Part shown: positions 4,481 to 27,900 of the stretch, piece by piece
Numbering within the stretch: position 1 is the stretch's first letter
Layout of the letters: every line of letters starts with the position of its first letter
Origin: Wolbachia endosymbiont of Drosophila innubila
Lineage (GTDB): Bacteria > Pseudomonadota > Alphaproteobacteria > Rickettsiales > Anaplasmataceae
NCBI RefSeq assembly: GCF_021378375.1
Contig: NZ_CP076228.1
Span: forward strand, 1,230,001 to 1,262,000
Direction: 5' to 3'
Length of the DNA stretch: 32,000 nt
Notes under the pieces: model-generated
Database searches by the model: none
What the model was told of the DNA's origin: nothing
The model's input: only the letters and a program-made list of their open reading frames with translations
Translations under genes and position numbers: made by a program

Positions 4481-6028
4481 TTACATCTCAGGTGTAACAT
4501 TTAGTATAGGCGCTATTCTATTTATAATGTTCTTTACTATAGGCGCAGCAATTATTCCCCCGGTATGGTGCATCCCTTGAGGCTCATCAATAGCAATTAG
4601 CACTATGTACCTTGGGTCAAGCATAGTTAGCACTCCTATAAATGATGCTATGTTTGCATCTTTGCTATATTTACCATCTACAACTTTTTCCGCCGATCCA
4701 GTTTTTCCTCCTATTGAATATGCCTTTATTTTTGCTTTTCTGCCAGTGCCATCTGTTACTGCTGCACGTAATAATTTTCTCATTTCCCTGGAAGTTCTTC
4801 TTGAGATAATTTGCTCTCCTATACTTCTTTTATTCAATATCAAGGTTGCGTTATGAAATATCCCATTGTTGATTAATGCTGCTGCAGTTTGTGCAAGATG
4901 TATAGGAGTTACAGCTATGCCATAACCATAAGATGCTGTTATTAAAGTGGTTTCACTCCATTTATCCGGGATTATCGGTGTGGATTTTTCTGGTATTTCT
5001 ATTTTCAAAGGAGAAAATAGCTTCATAGCTTTAAAGTATTCTACCTGTTTTTCAATACCTAGTTTGACTGCAATTTTTGCTGCACCAATGTTGGATGATT
5101 TTACAAATATATCTTGCACAGTAATTTTTGGAATTTTAGATTTATGAAAATCCTGAATTTTATACTTTCCGATGGTGATTGGTGTTGATACGTCATATAA
5201 ATCGCTAGTTTTTGTAGCGTTCGCATCAAGCGCTGCGGCTATTGTAAAGTATTTTAATACCGACCCCATCTCATATACCCCAAGACTGGCGCGATTAAAC
5301 TTTTGTACGTCTTCTGCCTTATTCTGTAAGTTGGGATTAAAATCAGGTAGGCTGACCATCGAGATAACTTCACTATTTCTCACATTTAAAACAATTCCTA
5401 CTCCGCCAAGTGCCTGATATCTGCTTACAGCTTTAGTTAGCTCTTCATGCACTATGCTTTGCACTCGTGTATCTAAGGATAGTATTATGGGCTTTTCTTG
5501 CTCATTGTTTTTACTTATATACGCCTCAACTCCTGCAATACCATTGCCATCTATGTCAGTGTAACCAAGCACGTGTGAAAATAAATTACTGTGAGGATAT
5601 ATACGCTTTATGTCGTCATCAAAATTTACTCCTGGTACACCAGCGTTTTTGATCGCTAGTAATTCTTTTGGAGTCAAGTGCCGCTTTATCCAAGCAAATT
5701 TCTTTTCTGAAGTAAGTACTCTATATAAGTTCTTGTATTCGAGGTCATGCAAAGTAGAACACAGTTGTGCTGCTATACTTTCCGGATTCTTTACTTTGGT
5801 TGCATCTATATATAGTGATGTTGTGGGCACATTTGTTGCTATTACCACTCCATTTCTATCTAAAATATCAGGTTGTTTATGTACTATATTATCTTTTCTA
5901 AAATTTTCTGAAGTAGTAAGTTGATCAAATGTTAAAGAGAATATGCGAAAAATAATTATTATATAAAATATAAATAATGGTACTATAAAACACAGTGAGC
6001 GGAGCTTATTTTTAAGTAATGCTTGCAT
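4481..6028 (-). CDS. ftsI: peptidoglycan D,D-transpeptidase FtsI (PBP3-class penicillin-binding protein)
   Basis: N-terminal TM anchor. Carries SxxK (GSVLKY), SSN (VKSSNIG) and KTG (GGKTGSAEK). Collinear with E. coli FtsI blocks ([43 protein letters not shown]; [20 protein letters not shown]). The first ATG is at 6028; the ORF track uses a TTG at 6046. Confidence 0.8.
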
Positions 6029-6048
6029 ATTTACTTGATTTGACAAAA

Positions 6049-6978
6049 ATGGAAATCATCTTAGCTGAACCACGAGGTTTTTGTGCCGGGGTAAAAAGAG
6101 CTGTGGACATATTAGCTATTACTTTAGAAAAATACAAAAACGAGCGCCAAGTTTATGTGCTACACGAAATTGTTCACAATAAATATATAGTAGAGGACTT
6201 TAAGAAACAAGGAGTGGTTTTTGTAAGCAGTATCGAGGAAATTGAAGATAATGAAGGAATACTGATCTTCAGCGCGCACGGAGTATCAAAAAATATAGAA
6301 GATGAGGCAAAAAGAAAGGGTATTCAAGTGATTGATGCAACATGTCCTTTAGTCAACAAAGTGCATAAAGAAGCAAAAAGGTATGAAAACAGTGGTAAAG
6401 AATTAATTCTCATTGGGCATGAAAACCATCCAGAAGTTAAGGGAATTAGGGGAAGAGTAAACAATCCTGTCACTTTAGTGCAAACTTTGCAGGATGTATA
6501 TGATTTAAAGGTTAAAGATCCAGATAATTTGTCTTATGTTACACAAACTACGTTAAGCATCGACGATACCCGTGACATTATTGCTGCCTTGAAATTAAGG
6601 TTTCCAGGCATAACAGGTCCAGATTTAAAGGACATATGCTATGCAACGCAAAACAGACAAAATGCTGTTAAAAAGCTAGCTGAAATTGTAGACATGGTAT
6701 TAGTTGTAGGAAGTAAAAATAGCTCAAATTCAAACCGCTTATTAGATCTGTGCACTGCCAGAGGAAAAAGAGCCTACTTGATTGATAATTACAGCTGTGT
6801 GAATAAAAGCTGGTTTCAGGGCGTAGAAAAGATAGGAATCACCGCAGGTGCTTCCGCTCCTGACATATTAGTTGATGAATTAATAGACTACCTAAAAGTA
6901 AACCTGAGTGTAAAAATTTCAGTTATGCCAGGTGGTATTACTGAAAATGTTCAGTTTAAAATACCGAATCTGGTTTAA
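6049..6978 (+). CDS. ispH: 4-hydroxy-3-methylbut-2-enyl diphosphate reductase
   Basis: [19 protein letters not shown] matches the IspH N-terminus. All three Fe-S cysteines are present ([20 protein letters not shown]), as are HNKYIV, SAHGVS and [13 protein letters not shown]. The start at 6049 is by homology; the ATG at 6019 would add 10 non-homologous residues. Confidence 0.95.
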
Positions 6979-7116
6979 AACACAACTTATCTACTAAACT
7001 TCTCTTGAAATCACACAAACCAGCATCTATAGCTAAGACGTCATACCGCGATTCATTAGACTTCTTGCATAACCATATAACAAACTTTTATTGGGAATAG
7101 AAACGAAAAAACTTGC

Positions 7117-7145
7117 TTGACAAACTCCGCTAGCCCCCTTATCAT
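7117..7145 (+). promoter_or_regulatory. near-consensus sigma70-type promoter inside repeat copy 1
   Basis: TTGACA (7117-7122), a 17-nt spacer, then TATCAT (7140-7145). An A-rich tract (aaacgaaaaaa) lies just upstream. No gene lies downstream. Confidence 0.5.
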
Positions 7146-7378
7146 GAAACTGAAGCTATTGTATTTGCTTTCGCCAATCTGCAGATTAAAAGGTAAGGAT
7201 TACTTAATGTATCGGCGTCTTATGTTCAATTTTTTGCAGTATATAGATACTGTATGTCTTTACAAAACTTCATCTACATCTAGATTTTTATCTAAATAAG
7301 CTGAACGCGCTTATAAAGCGTTACAAGACATCAAAAAATGCCAATACTCGACAGAGATAGTAAAAGACTAGCTAACTC

Positions 7379-7400
7379 GGGGATTCTTTGTCTTTTTTTC
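7379..7400 (+). terminator. weak hairpin plus T-run at the end of tandem unit a, copy 1
   Basis: ggggattctttgtc followed by tttttttc. The stem is short and includes wobble pairs; the call rests mainly on the T-run and on recurrence in all units. Confidence 0.25.
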
Positions 7401-7522
7401 TGCTTAGTAAATTTCTTAAACATTTGCAGCGTAGGTTAGTTGCAATTAAAAGCGGCTGAATCTCGCTTGTCAAGCGTTTAAAACATAAAAAACGCCAATA
7501 TTTTAAAGCGGATAATAACCAC

Positions 7523-7546
7523 GGGGCTTCTTTTGCCTTTTTTTTC
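7523..7546 (+). terminator. weak hairpin plus T-run at the end of tandem unit b, copy 1
   Basis: ggggcttcttttgcc followed by ttttttttc. GGGGC can pair with GCCUU (two G-U pairs) around a 7-nt loop, followed by a U8 run. Confidence 0.3.
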
Positions 7547-7584
7547 ATTTGGTAAATTTCTTAATATTTATGGCTAAACGACAA

Positions 7585-7860
7585 CCGTCATCCCGCTGCT
7601 TGTTAGCGGCTGAGATACCGCGAATGAATCGCGGTATGACGGTTCGCAGAGGCATGACGATAAGGTTTATACCTTGTCATCCCAGTGCCCAAACGCTGGG
7701 ATCCAGTTTTCTTTACAAATTCACCAAAAGTGTTTCATTCTATAACATAAAACCCATACTCACCAAATCCAATGCATTACTTGCAATTAAGTTTCCTGGA
7801 TCCCAGTGTCTGGGCACTGGGATAACAAAGGAGGACGTTATTCCAGTGCCAAGCACTGAC
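7585..7860. repeat. nest of short palindromic elements at the centre of the ispH-htpG palindrome
   Basis: 7586-7642 (cgtcatcccgctgcttgttagcgg ctgaga taccgcgaatgaatcgcggta tgacg) has outer and inner stems. 7676-7706 (gtcatcccagtgcccaaacgctgggatccag) is mirrored by its reverse complement at 7796-7827. The same families recur at 14485, 21327, 24593 and 26489. Confidence 0.85.
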
Positions 7861-7914
7861 CATTTCTGGTCTCTTAAATTGCAACTAATCTAAGTATTAA
7901 AAAATTTACCAAAC

Positions 7915-7937
7915 GAAAAAAAAGGCAAAAAAAGCCC
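7915..7937 (-). terminator. weak hairpin plus T-run at the end of unit b, copy 2
   Basis: The reverse complement reads gggctttttttgcc followed by ttttttttc. Confidence 0.25.
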
Positions 7938-8070
7938 GATGGTTGGCTAGTTACTTACATTATACTTTCAAGTATGGCGTTTTTTTATTCTAAACGCTTA
8001 ATAACCGTGACTCAGCCGCTTTTAAGCCGCAACTAATCTAAATTATAAACGTTAAGAAATTTACTAAACA

Positions 8071-8091
8071 GAAAAAAAGGCAAAGAAACCC
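8071..8091 (-). terminator. weak hairpin plus T-run at the end of unit a, copy 2
   Basis: The reverse complement reads gggtttctttgcc followed by tttttttc. Confidence 0.25.
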
Positions 8092-8302
8092 TAGGGTAGC
8101 TAATTATTCACTATCCATTTTTTAAGTTGGCGTTTTTTGATGTTTTAAATAGCGTATTTCAGCTTGTGTAGCTAGAAATTTGATAAAGACATGAGGTGCA
8201 CATAGTGCAAAAAATTAAGCATGATTTACGCCAAATACATTAAGTTTTTTTGTCATTAATCCACTGCAGAGATTGCGAAGATAAATAAATAGCTTCAGTT
8301 TC

Positions 8303-8331
8303 ATGATAAGGGGGCTGGCGAAGGGTGTCAA
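8303..8331 (-). promoter_or_regulatory. near-consensus sigma70-type promoter inside repeat copy 2
   Basis: On the minus strand: TTGACA (8331-8326), a 17-nt spacer, then TATCAT (8308-8303). It points leftward, away from htpG. Confidence 0.5.
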
Positions 8332-8439
8332 GGAAGTTTTTCGTTTCATCCAATGCGCTGCCAAAAGTTTGTTATGCAAGAGATCCCATAAATTGGGTGT
8401 CATAATAACTACACCCACATTAATTTTGGTGTACGTGAC

Positions 8440-24944: not shown

Positions 24945-27900
24945 ATGCCGAAACGCACAGATATAGAATCTATATTAGTAATAGGAGCAGGCCCAATAGT
25001 TATAGGTCAGGCATGCGAGTTTGATTATTCCGGAACGCAAAGCTGTAAAGTATTAAAAAGCGAAGGTTATAAAGTCATTTTGGTTAACTCCAACCCCGCA
25101 ACTATAATGACAGATCCTGAGTTTTCTGATGCGACGTATATTGAGCCGGTACTGCCTGAAATCATAGAGAAAATTATAATTAAGGAGAGGCCAGACGCAA
25201 TATTGCCAACAATGGGCGGGCAAACAGCGCTCAATTGTGCAATAAAACTTGCAGATGATGAAGTGTTAGACAAATACAACGTAGAATTAATAGGGGTAAA
25301 TAGAGGAGCAATAAAAAAAGCAGAGGATAGAGAGTTATTCCGTCAGTCCATGGATAGAATAGGACTGAAATACCCCAAAAGTATCATTATAAAAAATCAA
25401 GAACAAATAAAAAAGGCTTTGGATTACGTTGGATTACCAGCAATCATTCGTTCATCATTCACTCTTGGTGGTGCAGGTAGTGGCATAGCATATAATAAAG
25501 AGGAGTTTTTCAATATCGCAGAAAGTGCTCTCAAAATTTCGCCAATAAATGAAGTTCAGATAGATGAATCAATTATCGGCTGGAAAGAGTATGAAATGGA
25601 AGTTATCCGCGATTGTAAAGATAACTGCATAATAATCTGTTCGATAGAAAATGTTGATCCGATGGGAGTGCACACCGGAGATAGTATTACGGTTGCTCCT
25701 GCTTTGACTCTGCGTGACGTAGAATACCAACAGATGAGAAATGCATCTATAGCAGTGCTGAGAGAAATTGATGTTAGTGCCGGTGGTGCAAATGTTCAAT
25801 TTGCAGTGAATCCTAAAGAAGATGGAAGCCTCGTTGTGATTGAGATGAATCCAAGGGTTTCTCGCTCTTCTGCACTTGCTTCGAAAGCAACAGGCTATCC
25901 TATTGCAAAAGTTGTAACTAAACTTGCTATTGGCTATTCGCTCGACGAAATACGTAACGACTGTGCTCCAATAATACCAGCAGCATTCGAACCAGTGATT
26001 GATTATATCGTCACTAAAATTCCTCGATTTGAGTTTGAGAAATTTAAGGGGACGAATTGTGAATTATCAACCTCCATGAAATCAGTGGGAGAAGTGATGT
26101 CTATAGGCCGCACTTTTAATGAGTCACTACAGAAAGCTTTCCGTTCACTTGAAACTGATTTTACAGGACTTGATGAAGTATTTCCTGAGAACATTGATAT
26201 TGATCACATAAAATCTCAATTAGCAAAATTGCTACCAAACAGATTACTGATTGCTGCTGACGCAATGCGCCACGGAATTAGCATAGAAGAAATAAATTCG
26301 ATTACAGGATATGACTTATGGTTTCTGCAAAATATACAGCAAATTATATTAACTGAACAAAAAATCAAGGAAAATGGATTTCCTGGAACTGCGTACGAAA
26401 TGTTAGAGCTGAAAAAAATGGGATTTTCAGATGCAAGATTAGCAAAGTTAAGTAATAGACCTACCTCTGTCATTCCAGTACCCTCTAATGTCATCCCAGT
26501 GCGTGACACTGGGATCCAGCCAGCGTTACACGCTGGAGATCGAGTAAAACAAATCGAAGAAATAAGAAAAAAATTTGGCATTAAACAAGTTTATAAACGC
26601 GTAGACACCTGTGCAGCTGAATTTGAATCGAGCACTGCTTATATGTATGGCTGCTATGAGGGTGATGTTGAAAATAAAACGGAATGTGAGGCGAATATTT
26701 CTGACCGAGAAAAGGTTGTCATTTTAGGAAGTGGTCCAAATCGCATTGGTCAAGGTATTGAGTTTGATTATGCATGCGTACATGCAGCTTCTGCCGCCAA
26801 AGAAATGGGGTATGAAACAATAATGATCAACTGTAATCCCGAAACTGTCTCAACTGACTACGATACCGCTGATCGTTTATATTTTGCACCACTCATTGCA
26901 GAGGATGTGCTTGAAATACTAAGTAAAGAGCAAGAAAATGGCACACTGGTTGGTGTAATAGTTCAAATAGGCGGTCAAACACCTTTAAAGTTAGCCAAAG
27001 TGCTTAACGAGAGAGGTTTCAAAATTCTGGGAACTTCGTTTGATTCTATTGACCTTGCAGAAGATCGCATGAGGTTTAAAAGCCTTGCTTTGCAACTTAA
27101 TTTAAAACAACCTGAAAATTCTATCTGCCATTCAGTAGAAGAAGCGTTAACCAACGCAGAAAAGGTGGGGTTTCCACTAGTAGTCAGGCCATCATATGTC
27201 CTCGGCGGTCAGTCTATGTCGATTAGACACGATACTCAGAGCTTTAAAGAGTACGTCTTAGATCAAACTAAAATCTTTGAGCATGGTTCGCTGCTTCTTG
27301 ATAAATTTTTAGTCAATGCAGTTGAGGTTGACGTTGATGCTGTATGTGATGGGGAAAAAGTTTTCATTGCAGCGGTCATGGAGCATATTGAAGAGGCTGG
27401 TATCCACTCTGGTGATTCAACATGCTCAATACCGACAAATACATTGAGTGACGAAGTAATAAAAGAGATCGAGCTCCAAACTGAGAGAATAGCATTAGCA
27501 TTAAAAGTGAAAGGTCTGATAAACATTCAGTTTGCTGTTCAAGAGAATAGACCTCTTGCAGAACCTGTTTGTGATGAGAAATCTTTAGGAAAAGTGCAGA
27601 TGAGCACCACAGAATACTCGAATGTATTTGAGGAGCGCAGACAAGCTTTGACGACAAAATTGCCTTCAGAAATCGAGTTATGCAAGAGGTCTAGTGATGT
27701 ATACATACTTGAAGTGAATTTAAGGGCTAGTCGAACCGTTCCTTTTATTTCCAAGGTAATCAATATTCCTATTGCAAAGCTTGCCACTCAGGTTATTTTG
27801 GGTAAAAAATTGAATCAGGAAAACAAGCCTTTCAATCATTTTGCAGTTAAAGCTGCTGTTTTTCCATTTACCCGCTTTGCAGGAGTTGATACTTTACTTG

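Follow-up and report, generated by a model that had tools for sequence, protein, structure and literature searches.

We analysed 32,000 nucleotides of the chromosome of the Wolbachia endosymbiont of Drosophila innubila (contig NZ_CP076228.1, positions 1,230,001 to 1,262,000; the whole stretch is called the window, and coordinates refer to it unless stated otherwise), with emphasis on the non-coding spacer between ispH and htpG. The results indicate, with a probability that we put at about 0.7, that the spacer holds two inverted copies, both unoccupied, of a dispersed, Wolbachia-specific non-coding transcription unit, that the promoter of this multi-copy unit is the bacterial attachment site (attB) of WO prophages of the sr2WO type, and that mobile hairpins lie between the tails of the two copies. 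Each copy would be transcribed autonomously into non-coding RNA: a sigma-70 promoter close to consensus is followed by a leader of ~150 nt and by two ~148-nt modules, and transcripts would run inward from 7152 on the plus strand and, as predicted, from 8296 on the minus strand. A 45-bp promoter block would be the chromosomal attB for the large serine recombinase of these prophages, with strand exchange within the hexamer TCATGA. Since the transcript start lies downstream of this crossover core, which overlaps the -10 box, integration would sever the promoter from its RNA and aim it into the prophage. The functional content would be the promoter, the transcript and the attachment (att) site, and the palindromic shape would be incidental.

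An earlier note, made from the sequence alone, had described the spacer as an imperfect palindrome (7063-8382) made of two converging copies of a promoter-bearing repeat. We aligned 7000-8450 with its own reverse complement by BLAST, and 7077-8375 matched 8375-7077 with 65.3% identity over 1417 columns (E=1.8e-125). The arms therefore aligned over their full length (65% over ~1.4 kb) and not just over short elements. An inverted-repeat search recovered all the ordered blocks that the note had listed for both arms, with the pairs 7107-7160/8288-8341 (91% identity), 7356-7419/8052-8115 (83%), 7517-7570/7891-7944 (89%) and 7051-7073/8371-8393 (78%); with the outermost pair, the palindrome extends from 7051 to 8393, slightly beyond the earlier limits. 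The inward-firing promoter TTGACA-N17-TATCAT was present in both arms with an 11/12 match to consensus, at 7117-7145 on the plus strand and 8331-8303 on the minus strand. The two ~150-bp units claimed for each arm were found as direct repeats with a period of ~148-150 nt and 70-73% identity (7300-7419/7455-7564 in the left arm and 7871-7988/8019-8141 in the right arm). Tandem Repeats Finder detected no array in the spacer, because the units are too diverged. The central inverted pair was also recovered, at 7674-7706/7796-7828 with 91% complementarity. The parts of the two arms, together with a third copy of the repeat further along the window, are as follows.

7051-7575, plus strand: left arm, a full repeat copy with a type-A leader (inverted-repeat search, self-BLAST, copy alignment).
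7117-7145, plus strand: left-arm sigma-70 promoter, with -35 at 7117-7122 and -10 at 7140-7145 (11/12 consensus).
7152-7299, plus strand: left-arm leader, with the transcript start at G 7152 (5' end mapped in wMel by rapid amplification of cDNA ends, 5'RACE; starts of paralogs).
7300-7445, plus strand: left-arm unit 1, ~146 nt, with approximate boundaries (direct repeat 7300-7419/7455-7564, copy alignment).
7446-7575, plus strand: left-arm unit 2, which contains AAAAAACGCCAA at 7487-7498 (direct repeat, copy alignment).
7870-8393, minus strand: right arm, a full repeat copy with a type-B leader (inverted-repeat search, self-BLAST, copy alignment).
Right-arm parts, minus strand: unit 2 at ~7870-8004, unit 1 at ~8005-8149 and leader at 8150-8296 (copy alignment).
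8303-8331, minus strand: right-arm promoter, with a predicted start at 8296 (11/12 consensus; homology to type-B paralog starts).
20870-21310, plus strand: third repeat copy, with its promoter at 20883-20911, core at 20908-20913 and predicted start at 20918 (77% identity to 7108-7706 over 607 columns).

The assignment as an attachment site was based on prophage junctions in other genomes, where contigs are given by L number. Published work gave ATGA as the core of phage WOVitA1 by attP PCR (Wang 2016, PMC5126046), described the attB of sr2WO as 'a noncoding, repetitive sequence' (Bordenstein 2016, PMC5062602) and placed sr2WO in VNTR-105 (Bordenstein 2022, PMC9203015), a variable number tandem repeat (VNTR) that is the tRNA-Arg-4/WD1131 spacer in wMel (PMC4349823). 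The hexamer TCATGA was found in all three window copies (7142-7147, 8301-8306 and 20908-20913), and the two in the spacer are annotated as follows.

7142-7147, unstranded: TCATGA, candidate attB crossover core of the left arm, with the published ATGA at 7144-7147 (aligned junctions; Wang 2016, PMC5126046).
8301-8306, unstranded: TCATGA, attB-like core of the right arm (junction alignment).

When the left arm was compared with phage records, it matched WOVitA1 positions 1-142 at 96.5% identity, starting at window 7142; the match directly follows the gene of the large serine recombinase and partly overlaps it. The other side of such a junction was seen where the WOVitB record ends (L099), and there the distal phage end is fused to the promoter half, which reaches as far as the -10 box. 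In wHa (L101/L113) and wVitA (L114), the recombinase gene was followed by TCATGA and then by a complete leader and both units, and window 7142-7581 aligned with the prophage flank at 97% in wHa and 93% in wVitA over 440-500 nt. In the wAna-like contigs L108 and L109, a WORiA-type recombinase (79% identical) was followed by TCATGA and then by the reverse-complemented left-arm promoter, its upstream block and ispH. Positions 5540-9654 of L108 corresponded to window 7147-3045 at 98.6% identity, with the junction at window 7147/7148. The left arm is empty in the window and in ten wMel-like genomes (L089-L098), and its ispH-side half is joined to the recombinase in wAna-like L108; as judged by these alignments, the left arm would be the empty form of a site that is occupied in wAna.

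Both halves beside the core thus matched the bacterial halves of real prophage junctions (promoter half in L108 and L099; leader half in L101/L113 and L114). The aligned junctions suggested an attP in which TCATGA is flanked by the inverted repeat AACATTGT...ACAATGTT, with the overall form AACATTGTACTGGACG-TCATGA-T.TGTATAACAATGTT. From the aligned junctions and the published ATGA core, the crossover core would overlap the -10 box, 5-10 nt upstream of the transcript start. We also considered whether the wHa and wVitA prophages sit in the htpG palindrome itself, and this was ruled out since their leader-half flanks lead to sdhA and rplU.

The frame of the sr2WO recombinase runs across the att core (L087 2501-2555; L108 5540-5654), so bacterial repeat DNA encodes the last 18 codons in WOVitA1 and the last ~38 codons in wAna. 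The particle-derived recombinase differs in length (579 aa vs 550 aa).

Two further recombinase lineages were joined to the repeat at other points. With the wHa recombinase as query (WOHa2/L101, 98% identical to that of WOVitA1), a second lineage with ~71% identity was found in the Wolbachia of Beris morrisii and Cantharis cryptica. It was joined inside unit 2 at AAAAAACGCCAA, with the repeat running back through unit 1, the leader and the promoter, and the junctions (L105-L107) were at the equivalent of window 21241 in the third copy. In CP050531.1 (L103), the 3' end of a 74%-identical recombinase met the sequence of the window at 8401, which is 7 nt beyond the palindrome's right edge, with its stop codon 48 nt before the htpG start codon. 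The site of this third junction is:

8400-8405, unstranded: TCATAA in the dyad GGGTGT..ACACCC, junction with the third recombinase lineage in CP050531.1 (L103).

To relate the repeat to published transcripts we used wMel coordinates. The window is from a supergroup-A, wMel-like Wolbachia, as judged from the sequence, because the 5' region of htpG is the same as that printed for wMel in the supplement of a Cappable-seq study and because an identical copy of the HtpG protein was present in 60 Wolbachia contigs. It is not the wMel reference itself: the ispH-htpG spacer measured 1511 bp to the upstream ATG vs 1527 bp in wMel-length genomes, owing to a 16-nt indel at 7598. The wMel coordinate is therefore the window position plus 1,209,387 left of the indel and plus 1,209,403 right of it.

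Both halves of the spacer (ispH/WD1275 and WD1276/htpG) had been chosen as highly expressed intergenic regions from wMel RNA-seq (Woolfit 2015, PMC4349823). The same study reported a 5'RACE end at wMel 1,216,539 (PMC4349823), which is 173 nt after ispH and corresponds to window 7152, the G of GAAGCTATT, 7 nt past the -10 box. Initiation downstream of the left -10, which the earlier note had left to experiment, is thus on record. All the 5'RACE primers were on the plus strand and the htpG-side 5'RACE failed (PMC4349823); the strand of the primers would explain the failure, as the right-arm promoter is on the minus strand. The 3' end of the ispH/WD1275 transcript is listed as 'NA' (PMC4349823). 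In our folds, the unit-end hairpins with U7-8 were weak (-4 to -6.5 kcal/mol, z ~0), and the hairpin at 7679-7702 followed by a U-tract was a better candidate for the 3' end.

Paralogous copies showed the same start. The wMelPop-CLA Cappable-seq table lists primary 5' ends at 131390(-), 388537(-), 713865(+) and 1067756(+) (PMC12558409 Table S1). In these table entries the upstream 50 nt was the repeat promoter and the +1 was the same base as the left-arm start, with expression of 40-201 counts per million and a significant change with temperature (PMC12558409). Over its first 100 transcribed nt, wMel paralog 713865 was ~99% identical to the left-arm leader, and a homologous leader is transcribed in supergroup-B wAlbB. 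For the right arm, the start at 8296, about wMel 1,217,699, is predicted from homology to the type-B paralogs wMel 131390, 388537 and 1067756.

The transcripts appeared to be non-coding. The earlier note had seen no credible open reading frame (ORF) across the spacer, and our comparison agreed with this, as no ORF was conserved between repeat copies and none was common to the three window copies. That the spacer is decayed protein-coding DNA seemed to us extremely unlikely: ORFs of 58-114 aa are present and the wMel annotation places two hypothetical genes there (WD1275 and WD1276), but the ORFs are not shared among the three copies, and they begin upstream of the mapped transcript start or cross palindromic elements. 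An Rfam scan of the spacer and the whole window gave no family in the arms. A single arm folded modestly better than shuffled sequences (z=-2.5).

The repeat belongs to a dispersed family with a constant plan of promoter, ~150-nt leader and two ~148-nt units. Three copies are in the window and at least four more are in wMel, which makes a family of at least seven copies. Six contigs (L081-L086) were obtained when metagenomes were scanned with a 23-nt motif from the promoter, and most of them end inside the repeat. One of these, L083, carries a second convergent pair with a WsnRNA46-like centre, adjoining unrelated genes. A plasmid collection gave no match to the repeat, and pattern scans of IMG/VR with two conserved motifs gave none. 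In a five-copy alignment, homology began ~15 nt before the -35 box and ran through unit 2, with variable palindromic elements after it. Across 17 copies from several genomes, the block CTTGACA-N17-TATCATGA had invariant -35 and -10 hexamers, a 17-nt spacer conserved at 92% and 12 upstream nt conserved at 74%. In the third copy, the stop codon TGA of recF (20884-20886; RecF by Pfam) is inside the -35 hexamer (20883-20888), so the last codons of recF are encoded by the upstream block of the repeat.

The two arms were ~65-70% identical to each other and carried different leader sub-types (A left, B right). Each was nearer to distant paralogs (97-99%) than to its partner, with the right arm 97% identical to L086. 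The arms are therefore not a local inverted duplication. An origin in situ, for example by template switching at the central hairpins, which would leave inert, cruciform-prone junk, would fit the palindromic geometry and the hairpins at the axis. We consider it very unlikely in view of the different sub-types with much closer relatives elsewhere, the intact state of both promoters and the stability of the arrangement, which was 98% conserved in ten wMel-like genomes and in wRi. Most family copies are solo (window 20870-21310, the four wMel copies, L081-L086 and L105-L107), so the palindrome is no independent unit.

The dispersal itself could be read in another way, with the arms as a non-autonomous mobile element, similar to a miniature inverted-repeat transposable element (MITE) or mobilised by a phage or insertion sequence (IS), that has an outward-facing promoter and overlaps the att site only secondarily. 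Copies do lie between unrelated flanks within and between genomes, assemblies break inside copies, truncated copies exist (L100), and wMel has four repeat families with hallmarks of mobile elements and no known transposase (PMC368164). We judged this unlikely: no terminal inverted repeats join the two ends of an arm, the upstream boundary varies between copies, and no target-site duplication was seen, though no systematic search for duplications was made. The flank differences are equally explained by recombination at the repeats.

Conservation in relatives supported a stable arrangement. In the ten wMel-like genomes the palindrome was 98% identical, in the same orientation and co-linear. The differences clustered in left-arm unit 2 and in the small palindromic element next to it, and the right arm had only two variable sites. 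L092 and L095 had a cluster of changes in the left-arm promoter (7123-7150), of which 7/7 in L092 and 4 in L095 matched paralog 713865; this match points to gene conversion among the dispersed copies. wRi retained the palindrome in full, from 7109 as far as htpG (98%), with tRNA-Arg(TCT) as the left neighbour instead of ispH, 155 nt upstream of the left-arm promoter. As wRi has tRNA-Arg there and the VNTR-105 spacer of wMel is tRNA-Arg-4/WD1131, the synteny break between wMel and wRi would be at the att/promoter block of the left arm. In a 95%-identical relative (L001), ispH was followed by a spacer of only 230 bp that holds one small palindromic element and then by a convergent oxidoreductase gene, and there were no arms; its homology stopped at window 7049, the outer edge of the palindrome. 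Four more distant Wolbachia were without arms and without htpG within 6 kb. Among the loci from an IspH search of genome contigs, htpG was beside ispH in 0/5 Wolbachia.

Several results weigh against the proposal that the spacer holds two empty attachment sites at active promoters. No prophage-occupied version of the right-arm core was found among the genomes compared. The recombinase end abuts the promoter half in wAna and the leader half in wVitA and wHa. A palindromic core removes polarity for serine recombinases, and we propose that the palindromic core with its central AT could explain the opposite polarity of the junctions. The competence of both copies in the studied strain as attB is predicted from their sequence, and the relation of VNTR-105 to the arms is deduced from flanks only. 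Instead of attB use, binding by a regulator or gene conversion could account for the high conservation of the promoter spacer. RNAalifold of five copies gave no covariation (term +0.84; 2/70 pairs compensatory). In its accessible part, the Cappable-seq table lists no start at wMel 1,216,5xx or 1,217,6xx-7xx, with only the htpG start present; the table possibly holds regulated starts only or excludes multi-mapping reads.

The earlier note had further suggested that read-through RNA would fold into a hairpin several hundred bp long. This was borne out in silico only, where a transcript of 7152-8296 folded with a minimum free energy of -457.7 kcal/mol, and such a transcript would have to pass two U-tracts and three strong hairpins. 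Read-through of convergent transcription to form a long hairpin or double-stranded RNA, possibly a small-RNA precursor (e.g., for the central WsnRNA46-like element), would agree with the inward direction of both promoters, the stable fold, the high RNA-seq coverage of both spacer halves in wMel, the weak terminators at the unit ends and the match of the centre to WsnRNA46 on the strand that the right-arm promoter would transcribe. We nevertheless regard it as quite improbable, given arms that are only ~65% complementary, three strong central hairpins of which one has a U-tract, a WsnRNA46 match below the Rfam gathering score, and a family in which most members are solo and need no partner. The palindrome would be a by-product of two adjacent copies, not a functional hairpin.

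The note had also expected the spacer to be a cruciform, inversion or deletion hot spot. Structural change was indeed seen at the spacer, as a central MITE insertion, gene conversion, and site-specific prophage integration with synteny breaks at the att core, but a cruciform cause did not hold, with the spacer 98% conserved and co-linear in the ten wMel-like genomes. The remark that ~1.4 kb of non-coding DNA is unusual for such a genome was overstated, as the wMel genome paper gives 14% repeats (PMC368164).

The sequence between the tails of the arms consisted of strong hairpins (z -3.8 to -4.4), including the hairpin at 7679-7702 followed by the U-tract. These elements, and a related one at the left edge of the palindrome, are listed here.

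7039-7057, unstranded: truncated small palindromic element (exact 19-nt inverted match to 7623-7641; L001 synteny break at 7049).
7579-7647, unstranded: small palindromic element, double hairpin (fold -32.4 kcal/mol, z=-4.4).
7674-7828, minus strand: hairpin-bounded WsnRNA46-like element at the centre of the palindrome (Rfam RF02625, 56.1 bits; inverted pair 91%).
7829-7869, unstranded: additional hairpins that separate the centre from the right arm (fold of 7786-7872, minus strand: -34 kcal/mol, z=-4.2).

The 68-nt double-hairpin element at 7579-7647 holds the 16-nt indel at 7598 relative to the wMel-like genomes, and the small palindromic element is also present downstream of the third copy and of L083a. 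The centre did not reach the threshold for WsnRNA-46 (RF02625), with 56.1 bits vs a gathering score of 65.3. A second WsnRNA46-like element at 24597-24717 on the minus strand scored 59.9 bits, which again falls short of 65.3, and pieces of the small palindromic or hairpin elements are present at ~14485-14561 and 26468-26519. In L089, a 326-bp insertion with 19-bp terminal inverted repeats (GGGCTTTGTTGCATCGCTA) replaces 7809-7839 within the central hairpin element (spacer positions ~847-1172), apparently a recent MITE insertion. Arrays of small palindromic elements (GGGATCTATGTTAAG...GGTATGACGG) are located downstream of the repeat units in wHa (L113 7230-7400) and wVitA (L114 7040-7190). These arrays may be VNTR-105 periods; the window has a single element at 7579-7647. 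The rows of the Cappable-seq Table S1 for the wMel 12,189 region and 218,317 showed hairpins TGTCATTCCAGTGCTTGACACTGGAATCCA with TTGACA in the loop, followed by mapped transcript starts, and for this reason the TGTCATTCCAGTGCTTGACACTGGAATCCA-type palindromic family may act as a mobile promoter.

Temperate phages integrate into tRNA, tmRNA or small-RNA genes. The Wolbachia repeat would be similar in that a conserved multi-copy non-coding transcription unit serves as attB. It would differ in that the crossover is in the promoter (-10 to start) and not at the 3' end of the RNA gene, that the RNA loses its promoter rather than being reconstituted, and that the enzyme is a large serine recombinase and not a tyrosine integrase.

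The closest known system is the sr2WO site in VNTR-105 (PMC5062602, PMC5126046, PMC9203015), which shares with the spacer the same recombinase clade, the ATGA core, flanks formed by a promoter half and a leader half, and its nature as non-coding, repeated, transcribed intergenic DNA. It differs in its locus (tRNA-Arg-4/WD1131, at wMel 1,080,340-1,081,546, vs ispH-htpG) and in that the spacer has two inverted sites, with VNTR-105 compared by its flanks only. The transcripts ncrwmel01 and ncrwmel02 came from the same screen as ispH/WD1275 and are likewise intergenic, with their own 5' end and no ORF (Woolfit 2015, PMC4349823); the ispH/WD1275 transcript was never named or followed up, and it is multi-copy and longer, with its 3' end unmapped. 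WsnRNA-46 (RF02625) has the same hairpin-flanked architecture as the centre (7675-7827, E=1e-9), but the score is 56.1 bits vs the gathering 65.3 and the likeness concerns the centre only, not the arms. VNTR-141 and VNTR-105 are intergenic tandem periods with 9-bp-stem hairpins in A-group strains (Riegler 2012, PMC3287509), a description that the central ATCCCAGTG..CACTGGGAT fits. The arm units differ from them in being ~148 nt long, two per arm and 70-73% identical, vs 98-99% between VNTR periods. We therefore rejected the 148-nt units as VNTR-141 or VNTR-105 on period, identity and location, from a comparison by description, with no copy-number variation in the ten relatives.

It is already known that sr2WO integrates in repeated non-coding sequence with an ATGA core and that the spacer is transcribed. 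In the searchable literature we found no description of the palindromic pair at ispH-htpG, of a repeat family with at least seven members, of a core that coincides with an active -10 box and start, of three recombinase lineages that each use a different point of the repeat, or of synteny breaks there. For the sole WO phage clade with mapped att sites, the attachment site would then be a family of at least seven promoter repeats in wMel and not one spot. As the repeat is multi-copy and present in both orientations, its copies would mark sites of Wolbachia chromosome rearrangement, and the points at which synteny breaks down between wMel, wRi, wAna and other strains coincide exactly with repeats. 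The family also offers an explanation for the resemblance among several of the 'highly expressed intergenic regions' of Wolbachia transcriptomes. wMel is released in mosquitoes against dengue, yet it is not genetically transformable, and rearrangement of its genome is poorly understood; the repeats offer candidate landing pads for engineering and a concrete mechanism for some Wolbachia rearrangements.

A wider idea, which we hold only tentatively and consider doubtful, is that the repeat family is a phage-host interface, in which integration rewires an active temperature-responsive promoter and alters the recombinase C-terminus, and the copies enable chromosome reshuffling. If true, the orientation in wAna would make the promoter antisense to the recombinase and that in WOVitA1 would direct it into the distal end, and promoter rewiring with the changed C-terminus could set the stability of lysogeny. 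The phage recombinase or homologous recombination would reshuffle the chromosome via the many copies and the palindromic core, with the ispH-htpG palindrome and the wMel/wRi tRNA-Arg break as footprints. The copies would then be ready landing pads for integrase-based transformation of wMel.

The window contains genes for PBP2, ispH, htpG, recF, carB and rpoD (ORF calls and Pfam). The features that flank the spacer are:

6019-6978, plus strand: ispH (LytB), left flanking gene (ORF; PF02401 LYTB in orthologous loci L089-L098).
8441-8476, plus strand: htpG promoter TTGAAA-N17-TAAATT and transcript start at 8476 (Cappable-seq pTSS_+_1217879, heat-responsive).
8490-10397, plus strand: htpG, right flanking gene, with the annotated start at 8502 (ORF; PF00183 HSP90).

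The predicted Wolbachia replication origin is near hemE, and a reading of the spacer as an origin was set aside on this background. The htpG promoter (wMel start 1217879, window 8476) is heat-induced and conserved in wAlbB. Downstream of htpG, a 921-aa ORF at 10436-13201 had no Pfam match. Its versions in relatives varied, with 1377 aa in L089, an IS110 interruption in L093 and a split into 533 + 373 aa in wRi, and its counterpart in CP050531.1 is an 885-aa Lipase_3 protein.

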